A DNA stretch of 64,000 bases, taken from positions 9,278-73,277 of the forward strand of contig JASMLK010000157.1 in assembly GCA_030748735.1 (NCBI GenBank), written 5' to 3'. This DNA is from Myxococcota bacterium. GTDB taxonomy: Bacteria; Myxococcota_A; UBA9160; UBA4427. Position numbers and translations under genes: made by a program. This document shows positions 1,838-38,511 of this stretch, one piece after another. A model generated the notes under the pieces. The model was not told the origin of the DNA. It did not search any database and was given only the letters and a program-made list of their open reading frames with translations. How positions within the stretch are numbered: position 1 is the first letter of the stretch; each line of letters starts with the position of its first letter.

Positions 1838-1868
1838 GGAAGGGTCCTGTTCTCTCCCGGCAGGCGCA

Positions 1869-3056: not shown

Positions 3057-3134
3057 CCGTCTTCCCTGTTCTTTCCCAGGATCCGAGGACCAGACCTTCT
3101 GGCCCCGGGCTTACCCGTTGACTCGGGATCGCCG

Positions 3135-3755
3135 TCAGTTTTCGACGACGATGGTGTCCCCAGCCTGCAACACGATGTTGGAGTCGGGCGCCTTTCCCGC
3201 GAGATAGGCGCCGTAGTTGAACACGTACTCCACCATGCCCGTCCGCGACTTGCGCAGGATGCGGACACGGTTCTTCTTGGCCCAGACGGTGAAACCACCC
3301 ATCGTGGCGATTGCTTCCAGGACCCTCATTTCCCTGCGCAGGGGCAACGCACCGTTGGCGGCCACGCCTTCGCCCAGCAGGTAGACGGTCCGGCTGTTCA
3401 TCTCACGCACGAGGACGGTGACGTCGGGTGCAGCGATGAATTCGGAAAGCGCCTCGGTCAACACTTCCTTGAGTTCCTGGGGCGTGAGCCCTTCCGCCTG
3501 GACGTCGTCGAGCAGCGGAACCGAGATCTTTCCGTCTGGGCGCACCGGCGCCGCGACGCTGAGTTCCTGGTTCTTCCACACCGTGATCGCGAGCACGTCC
3601 GTCACGCCAATGACGTACGGCTTTCGCTCACCCGCCACCATTTCGGGCGGCGGCGGCGGCGCATTGCTCGCGCAGGCCAGGAGCCCTGCCGAAAACGCCA
3701 GCGCAACGAGCACGAGACAACGCGTGGTAGTGCGTCGGACCGAAACCATCTTCAC
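3135..3755 (-). CDS. Polysaccharide export protein (Wza/EpsE-like, Poly_export + SLBB)
   Basis: Lipoprotein-like signal (LVALAFSAGLLAC), YVIGVTDVLAITVW and PDGKISVPLLDDVQAEGLTPQELKEVL motifs. Its start codon directly abuts the stop of the upstream regulator gene. Confidence 0.85.
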   Translation of the reverse strand: MKMVSVRRTTTRCLVLVALAFSAGLLACASNAPPPPPEMVAGERKPYVIGVTDVLAITVWKNQELSVAAPVRPDGKISVPLLDDVQAEGLTPQELKEVLTEALSEFIAAPDVTVLVREMNSRTVYLLGEGVAANGALPLRREMRVLEAIATMGGFTVWAKKNRVRILRKSRTGMVEYVFNYGAYLAGKAPDSNIVLQAGDTIVVEN

Positions 3756-5183
3756 TTATCGCCCCTCACTCAGGCCGTTCTCTTTCATCTTGTAGAGAAG
3801 CGCCTTGTAACTGATCTGCAGCCGCTCGGCGGCCTCCTTGCGGTTCCAACGGGTCTGCTGGAGCACCTTGTCGATCACGCGCTTTTCAGCGATCTGGGCT
3901 GCGCGCTTCGAAATCGCCTTCAGGTCCACGCCGCCCGAAAAGTCGACACCGAGGGCATCGAGATCCAGGCCGACCTCGCCGACCTCGGGGCTCTCCTCGG
4001 CGGGCTTGCCCCGCATGGCGATTTCCTGCAGCACGGTCTGCTCGTTGCCGAGCACCACCATGCGCTTCACCATGTTTTCGAGTTCGCGGACGTTGCCCGG
4101 CCAGTGGTACTCACTCATGACCTCGAGGGTCTCGTCGGTGAGCTCGCCCATGTTCTTCTTGTATTGCTCGTTGTACTTCGTGACGAAGTGGTCGACGAGC
4201 AGCGGCAGGGCATCGATGCGGTCGCGCAGCGGCGGGAGATTCACCGTCACCACGTTGAGCCTGTAGTAGAGGTCCTCGCGGAAGCTCCCCTCTTTCACCG
4301 CGTCTTCGAGGTTGCGGTTGGTGGCGGCCAGGATGCGCGTGTCGACGCGCACGTCGTTCTCGCCGCCGAGGCGCGAAAACTCGCCGTCCTGGAGAACCTG
4401 CAGGAGCTTGGCCTGCAGACCGGGGTGCATCTCGCTGATCTCATCGAGGAAGATCGTGCCGTGGTTCGCATACTCGAACTTGCCGAGCTTGCGCCGCAGC
4501 GCGCCCGTGAAGGCGCCCTTTTCGAAACCGAAGAGCTCACTTTCGAGCAGCTCGCTGGGCAACGCCGCACAGTTGACCTTGACGAAGGGATAGGTGCGCC
4601 GGCCCGACAGGCTGTAGAGGCCGCGCGCCACGAGTTCCTTGCCCGTGCCCGATTCGCCGCGAATCAAGACCGTGATGTCCGTGTCCGCAACCTGTTCGAT
4701 CATGTTGCGCACTTCGAGCATCTTGGGGTTGTCGCCGAACAGCCCGAGGACGTCTTCCGATTCGTTGCGGACGCGGCCGCGCAGCTGCTCGACCTCTTCC
4801 TTCAGGGCGTGCTTCTCGAGCGCCTTCTGGAAGGCCAGCTCGAGTTCTTCGACTTCGAAGGGTTTGCGCAGGAAATCCGAGGCGCCGAGCTTCATCGCCT
4901 CGACGATCATGCGCGCCTGGCCGTGGCCCGAGAGCATGACGACGGGCACTTCGGGGATGCGTTGCTTCAAGACGCGAAGGGTCTCGAGTCCGTCCATCCC
5001 CGGCAGCACGGCGTCGAGGGTGATGATGTCGGGGCGGGATTGGTCGAGGGTCGCAAGCGCCTCCTCGCCGTCGCCCACGGCGGTAACGTCGTAGCCCAGC
5101 CGCATTGCCAGCGTCTCGAGGTAGTCGCGGATCCCCGGATCGTCGTCGATCACCAGAACTCTGAACCGCTCGGCCATAACCAC
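3756..5183 (-). CDS. Sigma54-dependent response regulator (NtrC family: REC + AAA+ + Fis-type HTH)
   Basis: REC (VLVIDDDPGIRDYL...LDAVLPGMDG), Walker A GESGTGKE, GAFTGA sigma54-contact motif, FREDLYYRLNV, C-terminal HTH. The likely true start is ATG 5177 (MAERF), preceded by GGAAAG 8 nt upstream. Confidence 0.9.
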   Translation of the reverse strand: MVMAERFRVLVIDDDPGIRDYLETLAMRLGYDVTAVGDGEEALATLDQSRPDIITLDAVLPGMDGLETLRVLKQRIPEVPVVMLSGHGQARMIVEAMKLGASDFLRKPFEVEELELAFQKALEKHALKEEVEQLRGRVRNESEDVLGLFGDNPKMLEVRNMIEQVADTDITVLIRGESGTGKELVARGLYSLSGRRTYPFVKVNCAALPSELLESELFGFEKGAFTGALRRKLGKFEYANHGTIFLDEISEMHPGLQAKLLQVLQDGEFSRLGGENDVRVDTRILAATNRNLEDAVKEGSFREDLYYRLNVVTVNLPPLRDRIDALPLLVDHFVTKYNEQYKKNMGELTDETLEVMSEYHWPGNVRELENMVKRMVVLGNEQTVLQEIAMRGKPAEESPEVGEVGLDLDALGVDFSGGVDLKAISKRAAQIAEKRVIDKVLQQTRWNRKEAAERLQISYKALLYKMKENGLSEGR

Positions 5184-5279
5184 TTCTTTCCTTCACTGCC
5201 GCAACACGAGTGCGTCGGGTCGGTTCCCACGCGACGCAACGATTCCGCCGTGTGGGTAGCCCGGGCCGGTTCGCGTTCC

Positions 5280-5295
5280 GCGAGGGACGTGCCAA
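5280..5295 (-). promoter_or_regulatory. Candidate sigma54 (-24/-12) promoter for the regulator-EPS export operon
   Basis: The minus strand reads TTGGCACGTCCCTCGC, i.e. TGGCAC-N5-TCGC. GG and GC have the correct 10-nt spacing, with one mismatch to TTGC. It lies about 100 nt upstream of the CDS start. Confidence 0.45.
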
Positions 5296-5368
5296 CAACA
5301 GCGGTTCGGCGAAAACCGCGTTTTGTTCCGCCTCAATCCCAAAGGTGGGTGAACTCTTTCTCGCAGTG

Positions 5369-5413
5369 TGGAATAGTTTTCCTCAATTGGGAATAGAAAT
5401 CTCTCTTGGGAAC
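5369..5413. promoter_or_regulatory. AT-richer block with phased repeats (TGGAATAG / GGGAATAG 20 bp apart, then TTGGGAAC); candidate enhancer (UAS) for a bEBP
   Basis: GGAATAG occurs at 5370-5376 and 5390-5396. The block lies 75-130 bp upstream (minus-strand sense) of the sigma54-like element, where enhancer-binding-protein sites usually sit. Confidence 0.3.
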
Positions 5414-5657
5414 TTGGCTTCCTTTCATCGACACTACGAGGGCAATGCTGTTCCCATTTCTGCACTCGATCCTCACACGCTGATGACGATCTGAGGCAAG
5501 AACGGGTGCTCTCCCCAACGCTTTGCAATGGATGGAAAACCGTAGACATATCGGTAGCGACTGCGCGAGACTTGCGTGTTTTCCACCGGCTGGGCGCAGC
5601 TTGGATGCCGCCTCCCGTCGTCCCCCGCCGGGACCTCGACGCCTCCGCCAGACGGGC

Positions 5658-6857
5658 TCAGCGCTCCGGTAGAGCGGCGCGGTGGAGCGTCAGGTCGCCA
5701 CAGACCCGCAGGGTCTCGACCCGGGCGGAGACCGCACAGGCCTGACCGCGGGCGATTTCGAACCGCTGCCCGTCTTCGCCCCCCTCGACGGTCCCCCCTC
5801 CCCGCTCGCAGAGCAGGATCTGGAAACCCGAGCGGTTCGAGCTGCGGAATTCGTCCGCGACCTCGAGCCGCGACAATTCGAACACCGCCGCCGGGGACCG
5901 GTAGACCCACTCGCCAGGGCTTCGCTCGACCGGCCGCATGGGCACCGGCGCGCGGGCATGGAAGTCGAGGACGCCGAGCAATTCGCCCACGTCGACATGC
6001 TTCGGCGTGAGCCCGCCGCGCAAGACGTTGTCGGAATTGCCCATGAGTTCGATCCCGGCCCCGCGCAGGTAGCAGTGCAGTTCTCGCGGGGGCAGATAGA
6101 AGGCTTCGCCCGGTTCGAGATGGACCCGGTTCAGCACGAGCGGCGCGATCGCGCCCGCGTCGCCGGGGAACGCCGCGGCGAGTTGCACGACCCAACCCGC
6201 TTCGGGCGCAGCGTGCTGGGCGCGGCAGCGGTCGACGAGTTCGCCGAGCCAGGTCGTGGGATCGCTCTGCCAGAGCGCTGCAAAGAAGTCGCGAAGCCCC
6301 AGCTCACCCTGCTCCTGAAGCGGCCGCGCGATCTCGTCTAGCCGGTCGATCCCCAGCGCGTCGAAGCGGGCGACGATGTCCGCGGGAGCGCGGAACCCCG
6401 CGAGGGCATCGAATGGCGTCAGGGCACACAGCAATTCCGGCTTCGGATGGGGGTCGCGGTAGTTGCGACGCGGGTCGTCTCGGCCGGGCCCCTCGCGCTC
6501 TTCGCGCTCGAACCCTGCGCGCGCCTGCTCGGTACTGGGATGCGCCTGCAACGAAAGCGGCTGTCCCGCCGCGAGTAGCTTGAACAAGAAGGGAAGCTCG
6601 CGGCCGAAGTCTTCGACGCTCGCGCGCCCGAGACGACCGGCTGGATCTTCGGCGATCCACTCGGGCAACGGCGTCCAGCCTCGCTCGAGTCGCACGAGCG
6701 ACGGCGACGCCGCATGCGCCCCCATCCACCATTCGGCCTCGGGGCGAAGCGCACCGTCCCCTTCCGCTGGCTCGAGACCCAGCCAGCGCGAGATGAAACC
6801 GGGGTCGCCCCAGGCGTAATCACGCAGCGTTCCGCGGAGTTCGACGATCTCCGACAT
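5658..6857 (-). CDS. manA: Mannose-6-phosphate isomerase, class I
   Basis: MSEIVELRGTLRDYAWG start, LSLQAHPS metal motif, YRDPHPKPELLCALTPFDALAGFR, and cupin C-terminus. The start was trimmed from the 6875 ORF to ATG 6857. Confidence 0.85.
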   Translation of the reverse strand: MSEIVELRGTLRDYAWGDPGFISRWLGLEPAEGDGALRPEAEWWMGAHAASPSLVRLERGWTPLPEWIAEDPAGRLGRASVEDFGRELPFLFKLLAAGQPLSLQAHPSTEQARAGFEREEREGPGRDDPRRNYRDPHPKPELLCALTPFDALAGFRAPADIVARFDALGIDRLDEIARPLQEQGELGLRDFFAALWQSDPTTWLGELVDRCRAQHAAPEAGWVVQLAAAFPGDAGAIAPLVLNRVHLEPGEAFYLPPRELHCYLRGAGIELMGNSDNVLRGGLTPKHVDVGELLGVLDFHARAPVPMRPVERSPGEWVYRSPAAVFELSRLEVADEFRSSNRSGFQILLCERGGGTVEGGEDGQRFEIARGQACAVSARVETLRVCGDLTLHRAALPER

Positions 6858-6897
6858 CTTCTGACGGCCTCGCAAGCCTCGCGACGGAGCTGGCTGG

Positions 6898-8349
6898 CTA
6901 CTCCGCCTCGAGTCCGCAGTCGCGAATCTTCTGGAGCAGGGTCTTGTAGCTCACGTTCAAGAGCCTGGCCGCCTGCTTGCGGTTCCAGCTCGTGCGCGCG
7001 AGGACCCGCTCGATGGTTTCGCGTTCGGCCTGCTGCGCCATCCGTTTGCCGACCTCGCGCAGGGGAACATCACCGGCGGTCTCTTCGATTTCTTCGAGCA
7101 ACTCCTGCAGGGCCGAGCGCCCGACCGGGCTTCCGGCTTCGCGCCGCTCGATCTCGGCGAGAATGGAGTCTTCACTCTCGAGCACCACGATGCGCTTGAT
7201 CATGTTCTCGAGTTCGCGGATGTTGCCCGGGAAGTCGTAGCGCTGGAAGGCGGCGAGCATGTTGGGAGACAGCGTGCGCAGGGGCCGCCGATAGCGTGCG
7301 CTGTAGCGCGCGAGGAAGGACTCACACAGGCCCTCGATTTCGTCGCGGCGCTCGCGCAGCGGCGGAATCTGTATGTTGACCACGTTGAGTCGAAAGTAGA
7401 GGTCTTCGCGGAAGTCCCCGTCCTGCACCATCTGCACCAGGGGACGGTGGGTCGCGCAGACGACGCGAACATCGACCTGGATTTCCTTGTTGCCGCCCAA
7501 CCGGGTGAATTCACGGTCCTGCAGCACCTGCAACATCTTGGCCTGGAGGCCCGGGCTCATCTCGGCGATCTCGTCGAGGAAGATGGTCCCGTGGTTCGCG
7601 ATCTCGAAGCGTCCCGGCTTGCGCGAATTGGCCCCCGTGAAGGCGCCCTTTTCGTAGCCGAACAATTCGCTTTCGAGCAGGTCTTCCGGAAGCGCTGCAC
7701 AGTTCACCTTGACGAAGTTCTGCTCACAACGGGTGGAATGCTGATGCACCGCGCGCGCGACGATTTCCTTGCCGCAGCCGCTTTCGCCCTGGATCAGGAC
7801 GGTGACGTCGGTGCCCGCGATCTGGTCGAGGACTTCACGCACCTTGCCCATCGCACCGCTCGTCCACACGACGTTCGCCGGGTCGGCCACGTCGTTGACC
7901 TCGGTGTTGACCAGCATGCCGGCTTCGTGGTCCGCGCGATCGAAGATCGCCCCGAGGGCCGCGTCGAGGGCTTCTTCTTCGAAGGGCTTGTTGAGGTAGT
8001 CGACGGCTCCGAGCTGCATGCATTCCACGATCGACGACGCGCGACCGACCACGGAAAGCATGACGACAGACAGATCGAGGTTGAAGCCGCGAATCCGTCG
8101 CAGGGTCTCGATGCCGTCGATGCCGGGCATCATGATGTCGAGCAGCACGGCGTCGGGTGCGGCCCCGCCCTCGAGCAGCGCAAGCGCGCTACGCCCGTCT
8201 TCCGCCGTGTCGACGTCGTAACCCTTCGCCTCGAGCAGATGCGCGAGGTAGGTCCGGATGCCTTCTGCGTCGTCGACCACAAGAATGCGGCGGCGCGCCG
8301 GAGGTTCGACCGGTGTTCGACTCGTGCGTTTGGTTCCGCGGCTCGCCAT
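6898..8349 (-). CDS. Sigma54-dependent response regulator (NtrC family), paralogue of 3756-5183
   Basis: REC (ILVVDDAEGIRTYL...LDIMMPGIDG), GESGCGKE, GAFTGA, FREDLYFRLNV, C-terminal HTH (WNRKQAARLLNVSYKTLLQKI). Confidence 0.9.
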   Translation of the reverse strand: MASRGTKRTSRTPVEPPARRRILVVDDAEGIRTYLAHLLEAKGYDVDTAEDGRSALALLEGGAAPDAVLLDIMMPGIDGIETLRRIRGFNLDLSVVMLSVVGRASSIVECMQLGAVDYLNKPFEEEALDAALGAIFDRADHEAGMLVNTEVNDVADPANVVWTSGAMGKVREVLDQIAGTDVTVLIQGESGCGKEIVARAVHQHSTRCEQNFVKVNCAALPEDLLESELFGYEKGAFTGANSRKPGRFEIANHGTIFLDEIAEMSPGLQAKMLQVLQDREFTRLGGNKEIQVDVRVVCATHRPLVQMVQDGDFREDLYFRLNVVNIQIPPLRERRDEIEGLCESFLARYSARYRRPLRTLSPNMLAAFQRYDFPGNIRELENMIKRIVVLESEDSILAEIERREAGSPVGRSALQELLEEIEETAGDVPLREVGKRMAQQAERETIERVLARTSWNRKQAARLLNVSYKTLLQKIRDCGLEAE

Positions 8350-8355
8350 GGTTCT

Positions 8356-9495
8356 TCAGCTCTCTCCCCGCGCCGCGCGACCGCGAGCGGGGATCCAAAA
8401 ATGAAAGCGGCTCCCGCCGCCCGGCACCGCCTCGACGCCGATGGTGCCGCGATGGGCTTCGAGGATCCGGCGACAGATCGCGAGGCCCAGCCCCACCCCC
8501 TTCGCCGATTTGCTGCGACGGCCTCTCACATAAGGTTCGAAGATCCGCACCCGATCGTCCTGGGCAATGCCGGGCCCCTGGTCGGAGACGGACACTTCGA
8601 TACCGGGGGTCCCCGAACGCTCCAATCCACTCGCGGCGATACGGATTGCGCTCTCCGGCGTGGTGTACTTGATCGCGTTTCCAATCAAATTGGTAAGTAC
8701 CTGTTCGATCCGTGCAGCGTCGAAATGCGCGTCCGCAAGACCGGAGGCGACGTCGATTTCGACGCCGATATCGTTTTCTTCGAAGGCCGGCGCGAAGAAC
8801 TCGATCACCTGGCGGATCAGGCCTTCGATCGGCAGGCGCTCCAGTCGCAGACAGATCGCCCCTCCGTGGTCGTGCGAAGCGTCGAGCAGATCGACGACGA
8901 AGTCGTTCAGCCGCTCGCAACTCGCGCGGGTCGATTCGAGGTAGCGCCGTTGGTCGTCGTTCAGTTCGCCCGCCTGCTCCGACAACAAGAGCTTGCTGTA
9001 CCCGGAGATGACGGTGAGCGGGGTGCGTAGTTCATGACTGAGGGTCGCGATCAACTCGTCACGATCCTGTTTGATTTCCTTGTTTGCACGTTCGAGGCGA
9101 TCGACGTCGTCGAGGTTGGTCTCGGCCTGGCGAGGTCCACCCGGAAGGTCGGTGAGCACACACAGCTCGTGACCGGAGGCGGCTTCGAATAGCGCATCCG
9201 GGAGCGCAAGGCGCTCCACCCGAACGAAGCGCGGCAAGGCGTCCTCTTCGCCGGGACGCCGCCAGGCAAGGATCTCACCGCCGGGGCCCTGGTCGATCGA
9301 CTGGCCCCACTTGCGAAGCGTCGATTCGAGACAGGCTCCCATGAAGGTGGGTGCCCCTTCGCCGGTCAAACGTTCCGCGGCCGCGTCGCTCGCCCACACG
9401 ATCTTCCCGTCGCGACACAGCACCATGGCAGACGAGTTGACGCACGGCTCGGCGTCTCCACGCGTGTCGCGTACCTGGGCTGCCGTGCCGGACAT
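8356..9495 (-). CDS. Soluble PAS-domain sensor histidine kinase
   Basis: H-box SHELRTPLTVISGY, N box NLIGNAIKYT, G boxes DQGPGI / GVGLGL, and no TM segments. The start was set to ATG 9495, preceded by GGAGGA. The 94-codon upstream extension in the ORF track is Arg/Pro-rich and overlaps the ligA promoter side. Confidence 0.85.
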   Translation of the reverse strand: MSGTAAQVRDTRGDAEPCVNSSAMVLCRDGKIVWASDAAAERLTGEGAPTFMGACLESTLRKWGQSIDQGPGGEILAWRRPGEEDALPRFVRVERLALPDALFEAASGHELCVLTDLPGGPRQAETNLDDVDRLERANKEIKQDRDELIATLSHELRTPLTVISGYSKLLLSEQAGELNDDQRRYLESTRASCERLNDFVVDLLDASHDHGGAICLRLERLPIEGLIRQVIEFFAPAFEENDIGVEIDVASGLADAHFDAARIEQVLTNLIGNAIKYTTPESAIRIAASGLERSGTPGIEVSVSDQGPGIAQDDRVRIFEPYVRGRRSKSAKGVGLGLAICRRILEAHRGTIGVEAVPGGGSRFHFWIPARGRAARGES

Positions 9496-9572
9496 CGATC
9501 CTCCTTCGAACGAATTGCGTCGGCACGCCGTGGTATGTTTCTGCGCTTCGGGTGCGAGAGGGGTGCCTGTGA

Positions 9573-11762
<2,190 letters not shown>

Positions 11763-12348: not shown

Positions 12349-13311
12349 CTAGACGTGACGCCTCTGGCGGATCGCAAGGCCTAGCATCCCCATCATCAGG
12401 AGAAGGCCCGTACCGGGCTCGGGGATACTCGCGACGCGAAATCCCATGCTGCTGCCCTCGACCGACGGGAAGCGGTCGTCCCGGTACGACGCTGCGAGAC
12501 TGATCGGGTTGCTGAGCCAGCTTTCGCCCCGCAGGCCACGCTCCGAGCCGCTTATGATGGCTTCGTTCCACTCCCACACGTTCCCGCCCTGGTCGAAGGT
12601 GCCGTTCGGACTCGCCGAGCCCGTGTAGCTCGCGACGTCGGTGACATCGCCCACGACCCAGTCGCAGTTCGCGGTGTTGGCCGTCGCGCCGGGCACCGCG
12701 CAGGTGGTCTGCGTGTTCGAACCCGCCGGGTAGTCGAAGTAGCTCGTTGTCACGGCGTCGTAATACGCCGCCTTGTACCACTCGTCTTCACTCGGGAGAA
12801 AGATATTCGCCCCGGGGTTGCGCGTGATCGAGTTGTTCTGGATCCCGAGATACGTGATGGTGTACGCGCCGGTCTCCGTGTCGCCGCTGCCCTGGCCATT
12901 GTTCAGCCAGTTCGAAAAGCGCAGGCTGTCGTAGAACGACACGTAGTTCACCGGCTTGTTCTCGCGCCCCGCAATCGCGCTGTACGTGTAGCTCCCCGGG
13001 CTACCGCTGCGCGTGATGCCGCCGGCGAAGCCCGAGCCCATCCTCGTGCTGTACAGCGCATTCGCGTTGTTGGACACGGCCTTCGCGTTCAGGAACTCGG
13101 CGTACTGCGCGTTCGTGACCTCGGTCCTCGAGATCCGGTAGCTCTGCGCCACGGCACCGAAACAGCCCTGGGACTGCGTGTCGCAGGCGTTGCCCGCGCC
13201 CCCCACCGTGACCCAGTCGATCGTGACCGCCGAGGCCGACTCGGCGAGTAAGAAGAGAAACAATGCGCCTACACCCAGGAGCAAGCGCGACAGTCGAACG
13301 AACTTCAGCAT
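12349..13311 (-). CDS. FGE-sulfatase (SUMF1/EgtB/PvdO) fold protein with a C-terminal PEP-CTERM sorting signal
   Basis: Signal peptide (LLLGVGALFLFLLAESASA), YRISRTEVTNAQYAEFLN, PVNYVSFYDSLRFSNWL and GNVWEWNE motifs. The C-terminus is IPEPGTGLLLMMGMLGLAIRQRRHV (PEP + TM + basic tail). Confidence 0.85.
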   Translation of the reverse strand: MLKFVRLSRLLLGVGALFLFLLAESASAVTIDWVTVGGAGNACDTQSQGCFGAVAQSYRISRTEVTNAQYAEFLNAKAVSNNANALYSTRMGSGFAGGITRSGSPGSYTYSAIAGRENKPVNYVSFYDSLRFSNWLNNGQGSGDTETGAYTITYLGIQNNSITRNPGANIFLPSEDEWYKAAYYDAVTTSYFDYPAGSNTQTTCAVPGATANTANCDWVVGDVTDVASYTGSASPNGTFDQGGNVWEWNEAIISGSERGLRGESWLSNPISLAASYRDDRFPSVEGSSMGFRVASIPEPGTGLLLMMGMLGLAIRQRRHV

Positions 13312-16593: not shown

Positions 16594-17313
16594 ATGTCGA
16601 TCGACCAGGACGAAGCGAAAGACCCCGTTGCTTTCACGAAAACCGGCGAAGGCCCCGCCGTCATTCTCAGCCATGGTCTCGGCGACTCCGCCGAAACCTG
16701 GACCGAGCTGCTGCCTCATCTCGAAGGGTGCGAGTGTTGGACGTGGGACATGCTCGGCCATGGCGCGTCGCCGAAGCCGACCGACGACGGTGCCTATTCG
16801 ATGCAACGCGCGATCGACGATCTCGAAGGCATGATCGAAAGGGTGGGGCGCGACGTCGTGCTGATCGGCCACTCCCTCGGTGGCTACCTCTCGCAACATC
16901 GCGCGGTGCGCGACCTCGCGAACCTTCGCGGTCTGGTCTTGATCGCGACCGGGCCGGGCTATCGCGACCCCGAACGCCGCGAAGAATGGAATTCCTACGT
17001 CCACAAGGCGGCGGGCACCTTCGACATCCCTGCGCCCGCGATGAAGCTGGCGCTGCAACACGACGAACTCGTGATGAACAACCTCGAAGCGATCCGCGTG
17101 CCCGTGATGCAGGTGCTGGGTAGTCGCGACAAGCAGTATCACATCGCCTTCGAGCTGATGAAGAAGCGCCTGCCCTGGCTGGCATCGCTGTGGGTCGACG
17201 ACGCGGGGCACCACGTGCATCGCAGTCACGCCGACATCGTCGGCCCGGCGATCCGCCGCTTCATCGAGGGGCTGGGGGCGGACGTCGAAATGCCGCCGCG
17301 GCCGGGACGATGA
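16594..17313 (+). CDS. Alpha/beta hydrolase
   Basis: HGLGDS oxyanion region, GHSLGG nucleophile elbow, C-terminal DDAGHHVH. Confidence 0.85.
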   Translation: MSIDQDEAKDPVAFTKTGEGPAVILSHGLGDSAETWTELLPHLEGCECWTWDMLGHGASPKPTDDGAYSMQRAIDDLEGMIERVGRDVVLIGHSLGGYLSQHRAVRDLANLRGLVLIATGPGYRDPERREEWNSYVHKAAGTFDIPAPAMKLALQHDELVMNNLEAIRVPVMQVLGSRDKQYHIAFELMKKRLPWLASLWVDDAGHHVHRSHADIVGPAIRRFIEGLGADVEMPPRPGR

Positions 17314-17328
17314 CCTCCCAGCCCACGA

Positions 17329-17381
17329 CGCGCCGCCCGCGGCGGCCTTTCAGGCCGATCGGAGCGGGTCGACATAGCGTT
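17329..17381 (+). repeat. Third, partial copy (~50-bp core) of the repeat family
   Basis: cgcgccgcccgcggcggcctttcaggccgatcggagcgggtcgacatagcgtt versus copy A 12245-12297 cgccccgcgccgggccctttcagcccgatcggagcgagttgacatagcgtt. It starts 16 nt after the hydrolase stop. Confidence 0.6.
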
Positions 17382-17824
17382 CCCAGATTCAAGGGGTCGT
17401 CGCACCGTCTGGGAACGCGACGCAGGACGCTGCGCCTACCTATCGCCGGGTGGGAGCCGATACGGAGAAACGAGGCGAATCGCGTTCCACTACCGGGTCC
17501 CGTGAGCCTGCTGTCGCGCTCACAATCACTACGAAAGCGAGCTGGCATTCGGTGCCGAGCAGATGATCCAGTGGCGGCCCGGGCACGGGTATGGGTGAGT
17601 CGCTCTTTCGACTGGATGCGAATCCAGTTGATGAACCTGGCGGGTTTCGGCTCGGATTGGATGGGTTGCGGGACCGGTGCGCCCGCGGGTCGATCGAAGC
17701 CGCGAGGCCGAACTCGCTTCAAAGAGAGTTCGACCCTGCCTCGCCTCAGCCATCGCGCAGGGCGACAGGGCCATCGAATTCCAGCCCCAGCACCTTGAGG
17801 CAACTCACTGGCTGGACATCCGGT

Positions 17825-18031
17825 CTAGAAGAGCGTGTAGATGAAGGGCGCTGCGGCGGTGCCACCGAGCATGACGAGCACGCCGAGGCCGAGGATCGAC
17901 ACGATGATCGGTGCGAGCCACCACTTCTTGTTGTCCTTCAAGAAGTCGACGAATTCACCCACGAGGCCCGTGCGTTCGCCTTCGGATTGGGCTGCGAAAT
18001 CGTTCTTGTCGTTGGTCGGCTGGTCGGACAT
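17825..18031 (-). CDS. DUF5989 (SxtK-like) small membrane protein
   Basis: C-terminal signature DFLKDNKKWWLAPIIVSILGLGVLVMLGGTAAAPFIYTLF. The start ATG 18031 (MSDQPT) is preceded by GGAGAA; longer alternatives are at 18043 and 18085. Confidence 0.7.
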   Translation of the reverse strand: MSDQPTNDKNDFAAQSEGERTGLVGEFVDFLKDNKKWWLAPIIVSILGLGVLVMLGGTAAAPFIYTLF

Positions 18032-18132
18032 TGCTTTCTCCATGACCGCTTTCGCGGTCGGTCGATCATCCAATGCTGGGGCCACAGCGCACTGTCAATG
18101 GCGGGCGCTGCAGAAAGATCCGTGTCGGGTGA

Positions 18133-18579
18133 TCAGAACTGTCGGAAGTAGTGCTCGTTCGGGCGGGGCGCTCGACTGTCGAGCCAATAGGTTTCAGCCT
18201 CGGGGTCGAACTTGCGGCTTAGAGGATCGTGCCCCAGCAGCCGCATCACCAGCCCTGTCGGCGTGATGATCAGGAAGTAGAGGGTCCCCAGGATGAGGTA
18301 CGACAGCACGAAACCGATCGGGTACGAAAGGATCGCGAGCCCGACATAGACGGGCTGATTCGCCTTGGGGTAGACGAGCCCGCAGATCCCCGAGTACGCC
18401 GCGAGGCCGATGAAGACGTTCACCACGATCGGTTTGGCGGCCCCCAGGCCCATCGCGAAGATCAACCACTCGAAGTGGGCGATCGTCGCCACGAAACCGA
18501 AGCCGAATACGGCGATCAAGCCGAAGTTGCGAAGGGTCTTCGCATCCGGCTTCCAGTTCATTTCGATCATTTGCGCCAT
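18133..18579 (-). CDS. SxtJ-family membrane protein
   Basis: 148 aa with about 4 TM segments, ending in EHYFRQF. It sits between a carbamoyltransferase and a DUF5989 gene, the conserved SxtI/J/K-type arrangement. Confidence 0.7.
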   Translation of the reverse strand: MAQMIEMNWKPDAKTLRNFGLIAVFGFGFVATIAHFEWLIFAMGLGAAKPIVVNVFIGLAAYSGICGLVYPKANQPVYVGLAILSYPIGFVLSYLILGTLYFLIITPTGLVMRLLGHDPLSRKFDPEAETYWLDSRAPRPNEHYFRQF

Positions 18580-18627
18580 CAGGGGCCTCTTTCAGACGCT
18601 CGCTAGAGCGACGGACGGGGTCGTGAA

Positions 18628-20457
18628 TCAGTCGAGTGCGAACTCGGTGAGGTAGGCCTCGAGGTCGATCTCGCGTGCGTTGGGCTGGTCGTCCTTGAGC
18701 AGCACGAAGTTCTCGAGCACGAGGACGTCCATGTTCGTGTGCATGAAGCAGCGGTAGGCGTCTTCGGCGTCGCGCACGATCGGCTCGCCTCGGACGTTGA
18801 AGCTCGTATTGATCAGCACCGGCGAGCCCGTCCGCTCCTTGAACTTCTCGATGATCCCGTAGAAGCGCGGGTTGCGGTCCTTGTCGATCGTCTGCACGCG
18901 CGCCGAATTGTCGACGTGGGTGATGGCGGGCACGACGCTGCGCAGCTGCTTTAGCTTGTCGAGGCCCTTCTCCCCGTGATCTTCGGTCTGCAAGAGCTTT
19001 TCGTCTCGCACGGGCGCCACGAGCAGCATGTAGGGGCTCTCTTCGTTCGGGCGCATCGTGAAGTATTCGTCGACGTGCTCCTGCATGACCGCGGGCGCGA
19101 AGGGCCGGAAGGATTCGCGGAACTTGATCTTCACGTTCATCACTTCCTGCATCTTCGGCGAGCGCGCATCGCCGATGATCGAACGCGCACCGAGGGCACG
19201 GGGACCAAACTCCATGCGACCCCCGACATGCCCGACGACGTTTTCGTCGGCGATCAGTTCGGCGATGCGATCACAGAGCTTGTCTTCTTCGGGGAAGTGG
19301 TGATACACCGCACCGACCGAGTGCAAGTACGCCTTGATGTCCTCGTCGGATTCGCGCCCGCCGAGGAAAGAACCGAACTGGCTGTCGGTGTCACCCGTGG
19401 TGCGCTCGTTGCCGAGTAGCTGGTGCCATACGAACATCGCCGCACCGAGCGCGCCCCCGGCATCGCCCGCCGCGGGCTGGATCCACACGTTTTCGAACGG
19501 GCCTTCGCGCAGAATCTTGCCGTTCGCAACGCAGTTGAGTGCAACACCCCCAGCCAGGGTCAGGTTCTTGGAGCCGGTGATCTCGTGGGCCGTGCGCGCG
19601 GTGCGCATTACGATCTCTTCGGTCACCACCTGGATCGATGCCGCGATGTCCATCTCGCGTTGGGTGATATCGCTCTCGGCCTGACGGGCGGGGCCGTCGA
19701 AGAGCTCGGCCATTTTCGGCGACGTCATCACGTCGTCGTGGCAATAGGCGAAGTACGACATGTCCATCTTGAAGGAACCGTCGGCCTTCAAGTCGAGCAG
19801 ATTGTCGAGGATGCGGTCGCGATAGATCGGCTCGCCGTAGGGCGCGAGGCCCATCAGCTTGTACTCACCGCTGTTCACCCGAAAGCCCGTGAAGTAGGTC
19901 ATCGCCGAATAGAGCAAGCCGATGGAATGCGGAAAGCGCATCTCCTTCAGCATCTTGATTTCGTTGCCCTGGCCGTGGGCGATCGAGCCGGTGGCCCACT
20001 CGCCGACGCCGTCCATCGTGAGCACGGCCGCTTCATCGAAGGGCGAAGGGAAGAACGCGCTCGCGGCGTGGGACTGGTGATGCTCGGTAAAGACGAAGCG
20101 GCCCTTGTAGCGGCCTTCGAGCCCGGCATCGAGTTCGCGGGGCGTGTGGAGTTTTTCCTTCAACCACAGCGGGAGGCCCATCATGAACAGCTTGAAGCCG
20201 CGCGGGGCGACCGCGATGTAGGTCTCGAGGATGCGGTCGAACTTGAGCAGGGGCTTGTCGTAGAAGGCGACGAGGTTCAGGTCGTCGCGATCGATCCCCG
20301 CCTCTTCGAGGCAGTAGTCGATGGCGTGCTTGGGAAAGCGGTGGTCGTGCTTCTTGCGCGTGAACCGCTCCTCCTGGGCCGCAGCCACGATGCGCCCGTC
20401 CTGCACGAGGCAGGCCGCGCTGTCGTGGTAGTACGCTGAGATCCCCAGGATGTTCAT
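18628..20457 (-). CDS. Carbamoyltransferase (NodU/CmcH/SxtI family)
   Basis: MNILGISAYYHDSAACLVQDGRIVAAAQEERFTRKKHD N-terminus (ASKHA/Kae1-like), plus a C-terminal YrdC-like carbamoyltransferase domain (LINTSFNVRGEPIV). The start was trimmed to ATG 20457. Confidence 0.9.
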   Translation of the reverse strand: MNILGISAYYHDSAACLVQDGRIVAAAQEERFTRKKHDHRFPKHAIDYCLEEAGIDRDDLNLVAFYDKPLLKFDRILETYIAVAPRGFKLFMMGLPLWLKEKLHTPRELDAGLEGRYKGRFVFTEHHQSHAASAFFPSPFDEAAVLTMDGVGEWATGSIAHGQGNEIKMLKEMRFPHSIGLLYSAMTYFTGFRVNSGEYKLMGLAPYGEPIYRDRILDNLLDLKADGSFKMDMSYFAYCHDDVMTSPKMAELFDGPARQAESDITQREMDIAASIQVVTEEIVMRTARTAHEITGSKNLTLAGGVALNCVANGKILREGPFENVWIQPAAGDAGGALGAAMFVWHQLLGNERTTGDTDSQFGSFLGGRESDEDIKAYLHSVGAVYHHFPEEDKLCDRIAELIADENVVGHVGGRMEFGPRALGARSIIGDARSPKMQEVMNVKIKFRESFRPFAPAVMQEHVDEYFTMRPNEESPYMLLVAPVRDEKLLQTEDHGEKGLDKLKQLRSVVPAITHVDNSARVQTIDKDRNPRFYGIIEKFKERTGSPVLINTSFNVRGEPIVRDAEDAYRCFMHTNMDVLVLENFVLLKDDQPNAREIDLEAYLTEFALD

Positions 20458-20704
20458 CTGGTTCTCCGTTCCCGTGTCGCCTGGCTTGCTGCTTCTACCA
20501 ATGGGCAATAGGCGCCGGCTCGATTCGATCCAGCGACCGCGGCCGACGCATCGCCTGATTCGCGCCGGGTGAGTGACCCACGACACCCAGATGGGGTCGC
20601 GGATTGTGAGCGAGCGGCAACCCGATCACAATAGCCACATCGGTACAACGCCTCTCCAGTAAAGAGAAAAGCAGCGCAACCGGCAGAACCTGTTCACGGC
20701 GTTT

Positions 20705-20730
20705 CACTTGCGCGCAACTTGGCGCAAGTG
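20705..20730. other. Perfect 9-bp-stem hairpin (CACTTGCGC-N8-GCGCAAGTG) downstream of the heparinase-like gene; possible terminator or operator
   Basis: The inverted repeat was read directly. No U tract follows on either strand. Confidence 0.3.
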
Positions 20731-20785
20731 CACTGCGGCGCGATCCAACGGGGCGGCACCGAGTCTCCCCCTGGCCTTCGCCGGT

Positions 20786-22432
20786 TCAGTCTGTCGCGAC
20801 GCGAAACACCACACGGCCCGTCACCGGGGCGGCGGCTTTTCCCACCAAGGCGTCGCGCTCGAGCGCCTCGCCGAAACGGGGAAACCACGGACGACGCGCG
20901 ACACTCCAATCGACACCTGCGGGCAATTCGAGTTCCAGTCGTGCGCCACTGCGCAATTCGAGTTGCGCTCGAGCCGCCGACACATCGAGGCCCACCACCA
21001 CGACGTCGGACCCGAAGGGCAAGCTGATCAGCGCCTGGGCCGCCGCGCCGCTGACGCAGTCCTCGACTGCGACACTTCCGTTCTGCACGCGAAAGTGTCG
21101 TTCGTGAACGATCTCACGTCGCGACCAGGGCGAGCAGCGTGCCCGCAGCTCCCCTCCCCCCGCCTCGACGACCTCACAATGGGCGCGACCGCCGACGCGG
21201 TGTGCGCTCCAGATCTCACTCTGCTCGTGGCCATCGAACTGCAAGGTCGCGTGTGAAGTCGTCGCCCGACTCGCGTCGCGAAGAGGCCCGGGGACGTACT
21301 CCGTCACCCCCGTATCACTCACCACCCGCTCTTCGCCATACGACAATTCGAACGAAAGGGCATCACAATGGGCGTGCCCCGGCTGATAGCTCGGGGCCGG
21401 CGGGGCCGTGGTCGCGATCAGCGTAAACGCCCCGTCTTGCAACCGATAGATGCCTGCGTCTTCCAGCTGGCCTCCCGCTGGCGCTCGCGGGGTGACGCCG
21501 AGGGACGCCGCGTAGCGCGCGACCTCCGCCGGCGGATGCGCGATGTCGAAGGCCGAATCGCTGAACAGGGCGATTTCGCCGTCGGGATGAATCCACACCT
21601 CGTGCGCACCGAGCATGCGCGCCGTCGCATCCTCGAGCGCCGCCACGAGCGCACGCGGCGCCCGTCCCTCTGCGGCGCGCGCGAGGTTCAACAGGTCGAG
21701 CAGGTTTTCGAGCAGCAGCGCGTGGTACATGGGGCTGCGCTCGACATGCGAACCGTCGGGGAGAACCTGGACTTCGAGCTCGCGACGCAGACGTGATGCG
21801 AAGCCAAGCCAACGATCGGCGCCAGCGCCTTCGAACAGCAGCCCCGCGAAGACCACCCCGAGCAGATTCGAAAGCAGATGGTTCGCCTGCAGTCGCACCT
21901 CGATGCGCCGCGACAGGGTTTCCGCCTGCTGGGCGAGAGACGCTCGCATGCGTTCTTCGACCTCGGGAGACAGGGCCAGCAGTCCCGGGGTGAGCCGCAA
22001 CTTGCCCCACGACAGGATGCGCAGCGAAATCGGGTGCGGCGCCCAACCGTGGCCCCGCTCACAGTTCGTGATCCAGTTTTCGACCGCGCGGCCGCGAGCC
22101 TCGGGCGACAGCGCGGGGTCGCGCGCCCAGTCGAATTGATGGAGATGGAACGCCCAGAGCGGTCCATGCCCGTCGAACTGCCAATCGATCCCGTCCTCGA
22201 AGCGGTGCGCGCGGCGAATCAATTCGAAGGTCGCTTCGCCGTCGAAGCGGGCGTGTGGCGGAGCCGGAAGAAACGGCGCGTGCGACGTTTCGACGCTGAG
22301 AGGCGGCGCCTCGCCGCGCGGCACACCGGGGCGCCCTTCGTCGACCATCACATGTCGAAGCTGGGCCGCGAGCTGCACCGGCTTGTAGTGAAGCACGGTG
22401 CGCAACAGGCGCGGGATGTCGCGAGGCTTCAC
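20786..22432 (-). CDS. Heparinase II/III-like family protein
   Basis: 548 aa with an N-terminal alpha/alpha-toroid-like region (WAFHLHQFDWARD, LRILSWGKL) and a C-terminal beta-sandwich containing HAHCDALSFEL, typical of the Hepar_II_III family. The GTG start overlaps the rsmI stop (GTGA). Confidence 0.75.
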   Translation of the reverse strand: MKPRDIPRLLRTVLHYKPVQLAAQLRHVMVDEGRPGVPRGEAPPLSVETSHAPFLPAPPHARFDGEATFELIRRAHRFEDGIDWQFDGHGPLWAFHLHQFDWARDPALSPEARGRAVENWITNCERGHGWAPHPISLRILSWGKLRLTPGLLALSPEVEERMRASLAQQAETLSRRIEVRLQANHLLSNLLGVVFAGLLFEGAGADRWLGFASRLRRELEVQVLPDGSHVERSPMYHALLLENLLDLLNLARAAEGRAPRALVAALEDATARMLGAHEVWIHPDGEIALFSDSAFDIAHPPAEVARYAASLGVTPRAPAGGQLEDAGIYRLQDGAFTLIATTAPPAPSYQPGHAHCDALSFELSYGEERVVSDTGVTEYVPGPLRDASRATTSHATLQFDGHEQSEIWSAHRVGGRAHCEVVEAGGGELRARCSPWSRREIVHERHFRVQNGSVAVEDCVSGAAAQALISLPFGSDVVVVGLDVSAARAQLELRSGARLELELPAGVDWSVARRPWFPRFGEALERDALVGKAAAPVTGRVVFRVATD

Positions 22433-23298
22433 GTCGACACCTCGTCCTTGAGCGCCTGCACCCGGGCGTAGACCCGCTTGCGCGGCAACGCCGTGCGACC
22501 CGAGAGTGCAGCCACGATCTCGCGGGGCCGCTTGCCTTCGGTGAGGGCCTCCCGAATCGCGCTGTCGAGGGCCTCGTCATCGAGGATCCCGGCGTCCCCT
22601 CGCTGCTCGGCTTCCCGTTCGGCGGCTTCACCGAGCGCGCCTTCGAGCACGATCGTGCATTCCCCCTTCACGCCGTCGGCGAAGTGCGCCGCAAGCTCGG
22701 CACAGCTTCCGCGCACCACTTCCTCGTGCCGCTTGGTGAGTTCGCGCGCGACGCAGCCGCGTCGCGCTGGAAAGCATGCGGCCAATTCGAGTAGCCGGCC
22801 GTGCAGTCGCGCGGGTGATTCGAACATGACGATCGTTTCGGGTCGCGCGCGGTATGACTCGAGCATCACCTCGCGAGCACCGGCGGTGCGCGGGAGAAAG
22901 CCCAGGAAGGTAAACGGCGCCGCGGGAAAGCCGGCGACGATCAACGCCGAGAGCACCGCCGAGGCGCCAGGCACGGGCTCGACCACATGGCCCGCCTCGA
23001 TCGCGGCCGCGACCACGCGCGCGCCGGGGTCCGAGATCAGGGGCACGCCCGCGTCGGAGACCAGGGCCACCGTTTCGTCGCGCCCGAGCGCTTCGAGCAC
23101 GGCGTCGACGCGCGACGCCTCGTTGTGCTCGTGCAGCGAAACCGCCCGCCGCGCGATGTCGAAGCGGTCGAGCAGGATCTGCGTGCGACGCGTGTCCTCG
23201 GCGTATAGGACACGGGCTTCGCGCAGCACACGAAGCGCACGAGGGGTCACGTCTTCGAGGTTGCCGATCGGTGTCGCGACGACGTGCAGGGTTCCCAT
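22429..23298 (-). CDS. rsmI: 16S rRNA (cytidine1402-2'-O)-methyltransferase
   Basis: MGTLHVVATPIGNLEDVTPRALRVLREARVLYAEDTRRT and the tetrapyrrole-methylase fold motifs. Confidence 0.9.
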   Translation of the reverse strand: MGTLHVVATPIGNLEDVTPRALRVLREARVLYAEDTRRTQILLDRFDIARRAVSLHEHNEASRVDAVLEALGRDETVALVSDAGVPLISDPGARVVAAAIEAGHVVEPVPGASAVLSALIVAGFPAAPFTFLGFLPRTAGAREVMLESYRARPETIVMFESPARLHGRLLELAACFPARRGCVARELTKRHEEVVRGSCAELAAHFADGVKGECTIVLEGALGEAAEREAEQRGDAGILDDEALDSAIREALTEGKRPREIVAALSGRTALPRKRVYARVQALKDEVST

Positions 23299-36917: not shown

Positions 36918-36936
36918 CCTTGCACGGTCCTTGCAC
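36918..36936 (+). promoter_or_regulatory. Tandem direct repeat CCTTGCAC-N3-CCTTGCAC (11-bp phase) 43 bp upstream of the exosortase gene
   Basis: Perfect 8-mers at 36918-36925 and 36929-36936. The geometry matches OmpR/PhoB-type tandem half-sites. The same bases also read TTGCAC-N5-TTGCA, one G short of a sigma54 -24/-12 element. Confidence 0.4.
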
Positions 36937-36978
36937 AGTTCCGTCACGGGTCCGCCCCGGCTGGTTCATTCGCAGCGC

Positions 36979-38511
36979 ATGTCTCCAACCGAATGTGGGG
37001 GCATGTCGTGCACAGGCCCGGCCCTCCGCTTCGATCGAGCCCTCATCCCCGTCGCCCTGGCCCTGCCGGGGCTCGTCGCATTGGCCTGGGATCCCGCGGT
37101 CTGGCTCTTCGGCACGTGGCGCGCTCCGGCCTACGAGAGCAACGGAGCGGTGGTCGCGCTCACCGTGGTCGCGCTGCTCGCGCTGTCCCTTGCGAGTGGG
37201 CGTGCGCATCGCGATGCGCGGTCTGCGCGCCTTGCGTTTGGGCTGCTCGGCCTGGCCGCGGCGATTCGGCTCGCGGGTCGGGTACTGGCTGTGAATACGA
37301 TCGGAGCGTTCGCGCTGGTGGTCGATGTCGCGGCGGTCGCATCGCTATTGCGCGTGTCGGCGAGGCCCTTCGCTCTTCACCCCGGGCTCGTTGCGGCTTT
37401 GTTCGCGATGGCCTTGCCGATCGAGCACTACGCCCAGCGCTTGCTCGGCCATCCACTGCAGCTCGCAGCCGCAACGACCTCCCACGCACTGCTTGCTCCC
37501 TTCTCTGCGGGGCTCGAGCGCGAGGGGGTTCTGCTGCTTCATCCCGATGTCGTCCTCGCGATCGATCTGCCCTGTAGCGGCGCGCGTGGACTTTCCCTCT
37601 ACACGTGCGTCGCCCTGGCCCTGTGGACCTGCCACCAGCTGAAAGTGGCGCAGGTCGCCAGGCTCGTGGCGGCGATCGCAGGCGGCGCGCTCTTCGCCAA
37701 CACGGCCCGCATCGTCGCACTCTTCGTCGGCGCCGCGAACGGCATTCCCGTCGCCGCCGAGCCTTGGCACAGCACGCTTGGTGTCTTCGCGCTCGGCGCC
37801 GGCGCCCTGCCGATCCTGAGTGTGTTTCGAAACGCGAAGCGACGGACGCCAGCCATCCGATGGTCTTTCGCCAGGCCCCCATCGTCATCGCCGCTCTTGC
37901 GATGGCCGGTCGCCGTCGGCACGAGTGCCATCGGGTTGGCGATCGCGATGGCGCCCCAGCATCCGGTGGATGTGGCACCCATCGAACGCGACGCGCGGCT
38001 GCCCGCGACCCTCGGTCCCTTCAGCGGCGTCGACGTTCCACTCGCCCCGAACGAACGCGCCTTCTTCGAACAATGGGGGGGTGGTGCGGACAAGCGGCGC
38101 TACCGCGCTGGGGATGGCACGGAGCACACGGCGCTGCTTGTCCGCACCCGTTCACCCCTCCGCCACCTGCACGGGCCCGATCAGTGTTTGATCGGTTCGG
38201 GGCACCGCGTGACCCGCATCGGCGTGGTGCCAGGCGCCGTCCCCACGGTCGTCTACAAGAGCATCGCACCCGATGGCCGTGCGTGGCGGGTGCAGGCCTC
38301 GTTCGCGAGCGACCTGGGTGAGCCGGCGAGCAGCGTGTCTGAAGTCGTCTGGCGATGGCTCGCCGAGCCCGAGGTCCCCTGGAACCTGATCGAACGCATC
38401 ACACCGTGGGATGCGTGCGCGGACGCATCGGGGGCTTGCCGGCGATTCGACCGCGCCCTGTTCACCAGCCTCGACCTTCCCGTCGAGCCGCATGAAAGGA
38501 GTTCGTCATGA
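36979..38511 (+). CDS. Exosortase-family transpeptidase fused to a C-terminal EpsI-like domain
   Basis: Polytopic N-terminal half with the exosortase Cys/Arg/His motifs (AIDLPCSGARGLSL; LFANTARIVALF; EPWHSTLGVFALG). The C-terminal ~220 aa carries an EpsI-like HGPDQCLIGSGH motif. The start is ATG 36979 or 37003. Confidence 0.8.
   Translation: MSPTECGGMSCTGPALRFDRALIPVALALPGLVALAWDPAVWLFGTWRAPAYESNGAVVALTVVALLALSLASGRAHRDARSARLAFGLLGLAAAIRLAGRVLAVNTIGAFALVVDVAAVASLLRVSARPFALHPGLVAALFAMALPIEHYAQRLLGHPLQLAAATTSHALLAPFSAGLEREGVLLLHPDVVLAIDLPCSGARGLSLYTCVALALWTCHQLKVAQVARLVAAIAGGALFANTARIVALFVGAANGIPVAAEPWHSTLGVFALGAGALPILSVFRNAKRRTPAIRWSFARPPSSSPLLRWPVAVGTSAIGLAIAMAPQHPVDVAPIERDARLPATLGPFSGVDVPLAPNERAFFEQWGGGADKRRYRAGDGTEHTALLVRTRSPLRHLHGPDQCLIGSGHRVTRIGVVPGAVPTVVYKSIAPDGRAWRVQASFASDLGEPASSVSEVVWRWLAEPEVPWNLIERITPWDACADASGACRRFDRALFTSLDLPVEPHERSSS

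Follow-up and report, generated by a model that had tools for sequence, protein, structure and literature searches.

The gene clusters for saxitoxin synthesis contain a block, sxtI-sxtJ-sxtK, that is followed by sxtL, coding for a GDSL/SGNH protein, and the same sxtJ-K-L grouping recurs in the suomilide gene cluster. The literature gives sxtJ and sxtK as "unknown" or "hypothetical" and assumes that their products work with SxtI (PMC2679770, PMC2684587, PMC12300590); we found no report in the literature giving either product a function, and a first-pass annotation of the DNA described here was correct in saying that none is established. The association of sxtI, sxtJ, and sxtK is itself already known from the saxitoxin papers and from Pfam. 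Here, we describe such a block in a 64,000-nucleotide stretch (the window) of a marine Myxococcota metagenome-assembled genome, in which genes for an O-carbamoyltransferase (CT), an SxtJ-family membrane protein, and a DUF5989 (SxtK-like) microprotein follow one another on one strand; this triad comprises the same three families in the same order. Unlike the saxitoxin clusters, the window has no other sxt genes and no SGNH gene adjacent to the triad, at the position of sxtL, and the context is one of housekeeping genes, with rsmI, rplS, trmD, rimM, and hydrolases as neighbors. With no other sxt genes present, no toxin pathway is indicated, and saxitoxin-like biosynthesis was ruled out for the window because no other pathway genes lie nearby. 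We regard the locus as a copy of the sxtI-sxtJ-sxtK type that lacks the flanking SGNH gene.

A second point of comparison is provided by the acyl-shuttle systems. DltX and bacterial membrane-bound O-acyltransferases (MBOATs) share a C-terminal FXYXXF motif whose tyrosine passes the acyl group to an SGNH partner, and the PatA protein of Neisseria gonorrhoeae ends in FIYANF (PMC12148441). The triad resembles DltB/DltX/DltD and PatA/PatB in having a membrane microprotein that ends in FXYXXF, with an invariant tyrosine predicted to lie on the far side of the membrane from the donor, and often an SGNH partner. It differs from them in that the donor is a soluble ATP-dependent CT and not an MBOAT, the group carried would be carbamoyl and not acyl, and no conduit, DltX homology, or (in the window) adjacent SGNH gene was identified; we found no report joining an acyl shuttle with carbamoyl transfer. 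TobZ, NovN, and GdmN, soluble O-carbamoyltransferases of antibiotic synthesis, share with the triad CT a two-domain architecture and conserved His-His-x-x-His and Asp motifs. In contrast to these enzymes, which act alone and on soluble substrates, the triad CT has an invariant and partly hydrophobic segment (residues 68 to 107) and is modeled in a complex with two membrane proteins. In the KEOPS complex, the active-site region of Kae1/TsaD is contacted by the C-terminal tail of a partner, and the modeled placement of the SxtJ tail on CT residues 121 to 124, beside the HHxxH motif, is loosely analogous; the KEOPS partners, tRNA substrate, and location differ, and KEOPS has no membrane component.

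We propose that the triad forms a membrane-bound carbamoyltransferase holoenzyme from which a carbamoyl group would be relayed, through the C-terminal FIYTLF of DUF5989 and an SGNH enzyme, to an acceptor in the cell envelope; for this statement as a whole, we put the probability at roughly 0.45. What is new here is a controlled three-chain model and its interface, a docking segment specific to the CT subfamily, counts of gene neighborhoods, and the finding that adjacency of the triad to a heparinase-like gene is incidental.

A fixed three-gene cassette

The triad and its upstream region are organized as follows, in window coordinates.

20786-22432, minus strand: heparinase II/III-like gene, with Pfam matches to Hepar_II_III_C (E 1e-37) and Hepar_II_III_N (E 1.4e-14)
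20458-20785, minus strand: 328-nucleotide leader between the heparinase-like and CT genes, probably the cassette's own promoter/regulatory region (from leader alignment)
18628-20457, minus strand: O-carbamoyltransferase of the TobZ/NodU/CmcH family, triad type (SxtI-like), 609 amino acids (from Pfam and orthologue start)
18133-18579, minus strand: SxtJ-family membrane protein, 148 amino acids (Pfam PF19588)
17825-18031, minus strand: DUF5989 (SxtK-like) single-pass microprotein, 68 amino acids (Pfam PF19451)

The first-pass annotation had described three codirectional genes with gaps of 48 and 47 nucleotides lying downstream of a heparinase II/III-like gene. The open reading frame (ORF) listing and Pfam matches bear out the position, and both gaps are reproduced between the ORFs, which are open from 18628 to 20586 for CT and from 17825 to 18085 for DUF5989. 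The starts were then refined by reading of the DNA and comparison of about 95 orthologous loci. All 66 of the 66 CT orthologues begin with MNILGIS, which in the window corresponds to the ATG at 20457; this is most likely the CT start, and 328 nucleotides therefore separate the heparinase-like gene from CT. The most likely DUF5989 start is the ATG at 18031 (MSDQ), with a GGAG 5 nucleotides upstream, giving a protein of 68 residues and therefore a gap of 101 nucleotides after SxtJ, whose own ATG is preceded by an AGAGG ribosome-binding site. The GC content of third codon positions is 0.79 to 0.86 in all three genes, in a genome of 65% GC, and indicates that they are coding.

Alignment of six leaders from the genus and one sister genus shows a block of about 120 nucleotides upstream of CT that is conserved within the genus and includes a possible hairpin (CGACCCC...GGGG). 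No Rfam match was obtained between positions 17000 and 23500 at E values up to 1, the promoter scan returned no site resembling the sigma-70 consensus, and terminator-like sites were at or below the expectation from shuffled sequence. The listed carriers of the window stretch are seawater and brine DNA metagenomes, with no RNA data sets among them. On the 3' side of DUF5989, about 510 nucleotides (17314 to 17824) contain no convincing ORF and are followed by a convergent alpha/beta-hydrolase gene (16594 to 17313).

The first-pass annotation had called for neighborhood statistics, and these reveal a fixed cassette. A single degenerate SxtJ peptide pattern, derived from a six-sequence alignment, identified 500 confirmed loci among 185,579 species-representative genomes, and neighborhoods were counted in the best 80 of these, using only loci with enough flanking DNA. 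In 65 of the 70 testable loci, the gene immediately upstream of SxtJ on the same strand is CT, with a median gap of 25 nucleotides, and in 70 of 77 DUF5989 lies downstream of SxtJ. The order CT, SxtJ, DUF5989 is likewise present in 17 of 20 loci fetched from relatives, and linkage of the triad is far beyond chance. Of the 24 genomes searched from the same family, 20 have SxtJ, as do 26 of the 41 relatives taken together. The cassette is hosted by Myxococcota, Planctomycetota, Acidobacteriota, Verrucomicrobiota, and others, and an exhaustive search places the SxtJ family at 6,055 cluster representatives (50% identity) at E ≤ 0.001.

Other arrangements of SxtJ are also seen. Three loci of Planctomycetaceae (L080, L092, and L094) have SxtJ homologues with neither CT nor DUF5989 within 10 kb, and in the latter two a class V aminotransferase gene lies about 3 kb downstream. 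A 184-residue protein (P0166) joins DUF7843 to the C-terminal half of SxtJ. An apparent natural CT-SxtJ fusion (P0145) was rejected as evidence for binding, as it is probably a sequencing artifact and CT is split into two overlapping calls in that assembly; a search for SxtJ as part of longer proteins came back empty, which says little in either direction.

Predicted docking of the carbamoyltransferase on two membrane proteins

The CT ORF codes for a Carbam_trans_N domain (Kae1-like; E 1.2e-105) followed by a Carbam_trans_C domain (YrdC-like; E 1.4e-69). The closest solved structures are NovN (9s2t; E 2e-88), GdmN, and TobZ, all matching over the full length with E values of 1e-73 to 2e-88. 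Against the NCBIfam NodU model, the protein reaches 146 bits, far short of the equivalog cutoff of 1,000 bits, and it is therefore not NodU itself. CT is 55 to 77% identical to its orthologues in Myxococcota, Planctomycetota, Acidobacteriota, and Verrucomicrobiota, with a mean column identity of 73% among 67 sequences; tailoring enzymes are not usually so well conserved, and the value speaks for a shared, conserved acceptor and not for lineage-specific natural products. In the same alignment, H126, H127, H130, and D149 do not vary and D332 shows at least 90% conservation, and we take these five residues to be the metal ligands, as in the TobZ structure. By analogy with the family, the enzyme would make a carbamoyl-adenylate from carbamoyl phosphate and ATP. 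The invariant residues also include K68, P69, K72, F73, R75, E78, T79, Y80, P85, G87, F91, P96, W98, K102, L103, and R107, all within the segment from 68 to 107, which diverges in two paralogues that are not accompanied by the triad (CT3 and the L114 CT-a). These paralogues also lack an insertion of about 20 residues and the C-terminal extension of the triad-type CT.

The source genome codes for two further CT paralogues. At locus L134 (contig C136), an SGNH gene (1489 to 2490) is followed after 4 nucleotides by a second CT gene (2494 to 3363) that is cut by the contig end; its product is 60% identical to the triad CT and departs from many of the invariant residues of the docking segment (68 to 107), and the SGNH protein is a membrane protein. 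Five relatives yielded no orthologue of this CT, and the assembly lacks its C-terminal half along with any accompanying SxtJ or DUF5989. The locus was considered as a possible second cassette and set aside. A third paralogue (locus L152, contig C27, 6799 to 8535) is accompanied by neither SxtJ nor DUF5989 and lies among ROK, SDR, hexapeptide-transferase, and GT2 genes, surroundings that by their gene content are those of an ordinary sugar-modification cluster.

SxtJ matches PF19588 with 41.4 bits (cutoff, 24.4) and has two transmembrane helices, a long hydrophobic helix (71 to 114), and a basic C-terminal tail. AlphaFold2 modeling of the protein alone gave a predicted local distance difference test (pLDDT) value of 87, with helices at 13 to 36, 46 to 69, and 71 to 114; a Foldseek comparison of this model with the PDB returned nothing at E ≤ 0.001, the best match having an E value of 2.8. 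The distribution of lysine and arginine fits a topology with both termini inside and the tail in the cytoplasm. The C terminus is an invariant Y144-F145-x-Q147-F (encoded within 18133 to 18150), which resembles the shuttle hexapeptide with the tyrosine one position earlier, is predicted to be on the cytoplasmic side, and is modeled beside the HHxxH motif of CT.

DUF5989 matches PF19451 with 72.2 to 73.1 bits (cutoff, 27). Its residues 1 to 37 precede a transmembrane helix (38 to 60) and are predicted to be cytoplasmic, and the protein ends in FIYTLF-COOH. Lysine plus arginine amounts to 5.75 before the helix and 0 after it. Together with the modeled position of the N terminus on the cytoplasmic CT, this charge bias points to an N-in/C-out orientation in which FIYTLF would face the periplasm.

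The three chains were modeled together with 67-row alignments, with CT as the scored partner and with three controls. The complex has an ipSAE interface score of 0.83 (0.84, 0.83, and 0.81 in individual runs), compared with 0.00 for all three controls; the ipSAE mark is reached by 58 of 80 solved complexes and by 2 of 110 mismatched pairs, and is only a rough guide for a three-chain model built with our own alignments. The runs share at least 93% of contacts, and the partner pLDDT is at least 85. On the CT side, the modeled interface involves residues 61 to 124, 158 to 177, 222 to 239, and 343 to 348; on the SxtJ side, the helix at 93 to 112 and the C-terminal tail (118 to 148); and on the DUF5989 side, residues 12 to 34 and one face of the transmembrane helix (39, 42, 46, 49-50, and 53), with residues 61 to 68 outside the interface. 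The tightest contacts are those of SxtJ Y144 and F145 with CT 121 to 124, the strand leading into H126-H127-x-x-H130, and SxtJ Y131 to S135 also make tight contacts with CT 170 to 173 and 228 to 230.

The model thus places CT on the cytoplasmic parts of both small proteins, and it supports docking but does not show it. CT would dock through its subfamily-specific Kae1-like segment (61 to 124), which ends immediately before HHxxH, on the SxtJ tail and interfacial helix, and also on the N-terminal cytoplasmic part of DUF5989 and the inner half of its transmembrane helix. The first-pass suggestion that SxtJ and DUF5989 are membrane-coupling subunits gains support from the contrast between the complex and its controls and from the invariance of CT 61 to 124 in triad-type enzymes, set against its divergence in the triad-less paralogues. 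On these grounds, we consider a heterotrimeric, membrane-docked O-carbamoyltransferase holoenzyme to be quite probable.

Routes for the carbamoyl group

Two features extend beyond docking. One is the DUF5989 C terminus: among 67 nonidentical sequences, the last six residues are FIYTLF in 51, FIYPLF in 10, and near variants in the rest, with FIY(T/P/A)LF as the C-terminal hexapeptide in 63 and F63, Y65, and F68 invariant. Nearly all of these proteins end at the phenylalanine equivalent to F68, and the motif is truly terminal; like the shuttles of DltX and PatA, it is a terminal FXYXXF with an invariant tyrosine. The other is the SGNH protein. All-against-all ORF clustering of 95 loci with Pfam scans identified a sole recurrent partner of the triad, a GDSL/SGNH protein that is either of about 400 residues with an N-terminal membrane anchor or of about 740 residues and fused to TPR, with conserved GDS, G, GND, and DxxH blocks (Ser, Gly, Asn, and His). 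The SGNH hidden Markov model has a matching ORF immediately next to the triad, on the CT or the DUF5989 side, in 35 of 91 loci, just as sxtL follows in the toxin clusters, and SGNH is the top Pfam family among 134 nearest-neighbor ORFs from 37 nonredundant loci.

An invariant FXYXXF tail on the far side of the membrane and a recurrent SGNH neighbor are most economically accounted for by a tyrosine-carbamate relay to an extracytoplasmic acceptor, which we put forward tentatively and at somewhat less than even odds. The FIYTLF of DUF5989 would lie on the outer side of the inner membrane, matching the location of the motif in DltX and PatA. The carbamoyl group, held by the tyrosine as an aryl carbamate, would be handed to the serine of a membrane-anchored SGNH transferase and from there to an acceptor in the envelope outside the cytoplasm, most likely a glycan. 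In the source organism, the SGNH partner would be encoded elsewhere, and 14 matches to the SGNH model elsewhere in the genome are candidate partners in trans. The chemistry is reasonable because aryl carbamates are known carbamoylating agents of serine hydrolases. A more specific version, in which carbamoyl transfer across the membrane is independent of an MBOAT, CT loads the DUF5989 tyrosine (possibly via the C-terminal tyrosine of SxtJ), and the SGNH enzyme delivers to an envelope polymer, seems to us rather unlikely as a whole.

Several observations weigh against the relay. The route by which the carbamoyl group would travel from the cytoplasmic active site to a periplasmic tyrosine is unexplained, as SxtJ and DUF5989 together provide about three membrane-spanning helices with no evident conduit, the SxtJ helices have no conserved polar or catalytic residue, and there is no MBOAT in the cassette or among its recurrent neighbors. 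The resemblance of DUF5989 to DltX is confined to a six-residue motif and topology, and a Pfam scan at E values up to 10 returned only DUF5989 and a chance SH3 match, with no DltX homology. No SGNH gene lies beside the triad in the window or in any of about 19 loci from the same order and closely related groups, the accepted substrate in the saxitoxin clusters is a soluble small molecule, and the complex itself is a prediction.

The absence of an evident conduit is accommodated if, essentially as the first-pass annotation had it, SxtJ and DUF5989 tether and orient CT at the cytoplasmic face, where it would itself O-carbamoylate a membrane acceptor such as a polyprenyl-phosphate sugar or lipid before it is flipped, with FIYTLF as a packing or partner-binding motif and not a carrier. 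The model puts CT against the membrane-proximal parts of both small proteins, including one face of the DUF5989 transmembrane helix and of SxtJ helix 93 to 112, a placement that suggests that a hydrophobic part of CT enters the bilayer next to the active-site motif. Gene contexts point the same way: in sister genera and close kin (L036, L037, L039, L040, L044 to L046, L052, and L053), the triad is flanked by genes for a HAD-UbiA fusion, an FAD_binding_4/ALO oxidase, an SDR, and a GDP-mannose-dehydratase-like epimerase, a set reminiscent of lipid-linked sugar synthesis of the decaprenyl-phospho-arabinose type, and in Acidobacteriota the triad has phosphomannomutase-type genes beside it. Either a glycan or a lipid-linked sugar is plausible as the acceptor. 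However, tethering leaves two things unexplained, namely a far-side hexapeptide that is invariant in four phyla and matches FXYXXF, and a membrane SGNH protein with an intact catalytic triad as the sole recurrent neighbor; we view it, and the noncarrier role for the tail, as possible and somewhat against the odds. We think it improbable that the triad carbamoylates a soluble secondary metabolite, as for saxitoxin, with the membrane proteins coupling the last step to export. The families are named after the saxitoxin cluster, and sxtJ, sxtK, and sxtL also occur together in the suomilide cluster, but near the triad there are only the housekeeping and hydrolase genes noted above and no other biosynthetic genes, the cassette is inherited with the family (20 of 24 genomes), and the CT identity across phyla speaks for a common conserved acceptor. 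The relay from DUF5989 to an SGNH enzyme is the reading that takes in both the tail and the neighbor.

The heparinase-like neighbor, window context, and implications

The first-pass annotation had linked the triad to the heparinase-like gene, and this link fails. Every one of the 41 genomes of the order has a single copy of the heparinase-like gene, even the 15 in which SxtJ has no match. In all 12 family loci whose flanks were read, the gene comes after orf183-rsmI, and in the window it overlaps the rsmI stop codon (20786 to 23298); this pairing of an rRNA methyltransferase gene with a polysaccharide-lyase-fold gene is conserved in the family loci. It adjoins the triad codirectionally only in genera g1, g2, and g4 and is far from it in most genera (5.98 versus 1.67 Mb in G011; 1.18 versus 2.55 Mb in G031). 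The adjacency is a lineage-specific juxtaposition, and the gene is not part of the module. That the two form one unit that cuts or remodels a polysaccharide and carbamoylates the same polymer is accordingly very improbable, despite their codirectional adjacency in the three genera and a distant heparinase-like gene 2 kb upstream of the triad in a planctomycete (L114). In addition to its occurrence in genomes without SxtJ and its coupling to rsmI, the gene is separated from CT by a leader with its own conserved block, no heparinase family is among the top 25 Pfam families of the 134 nearest-neighbor ORFs, and no N-terminal signal peptide is apparent on reading the protein sequence. The protein carries the Hepar_II_III_N and Hepar_II_III_C domains that characterize PL12-type proteins; it is only distantly related to the solved heparinase III structure 4mmh (E 6e-7) and scores far below the cutoffs of the NCBIfam HepC models.

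The richness of the window in exopolysaccharide (EPS) functions had also been cited in support, and this argument does not hold, as the EPS and exosortase genes are at least 4.5 kb from the triad, and most are at least 14 kb away, with housekeeping genes between. These genes are as follows.

164-3755: Wzz/GNVR protein, outer membrane barrel, and Wza-like exporter
3756-9777: PrsK/R-like regulators (two sigma-54 response regulators and a histidine kinase)
12349-13311: PEP-CTERM protein, FGE-sulfatase-like
36931-38511: exosortase EpsH

A VIT-vWA protein accompanies the exosortase region (36931 to 40661), and parts of a PEP-CTERM/exosortase system are scattered in the window.

The window itself holds a typical copy of the cassette without an SGNH gene, and with the heparinase link incidental its own value is modest. 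The wider interest lies in a very large family whose SxtJ and SxtK members have carried the label "unknown" ever since the first description of the saxitoxin cluster. If the relay is correct, it would provide the first function for SxtJ and SxtK and would extend the tyrosine-shuttle principle beyond acyl groups, to carbamoyl groups loaded by an enzyme of a new class. It would also mean that members of at least four phyla carbamoylate components of their envelopes outside the cytoplasm by an undescribed route, and it would have consequences for the organization of the final step in saxitoxin synthesis.

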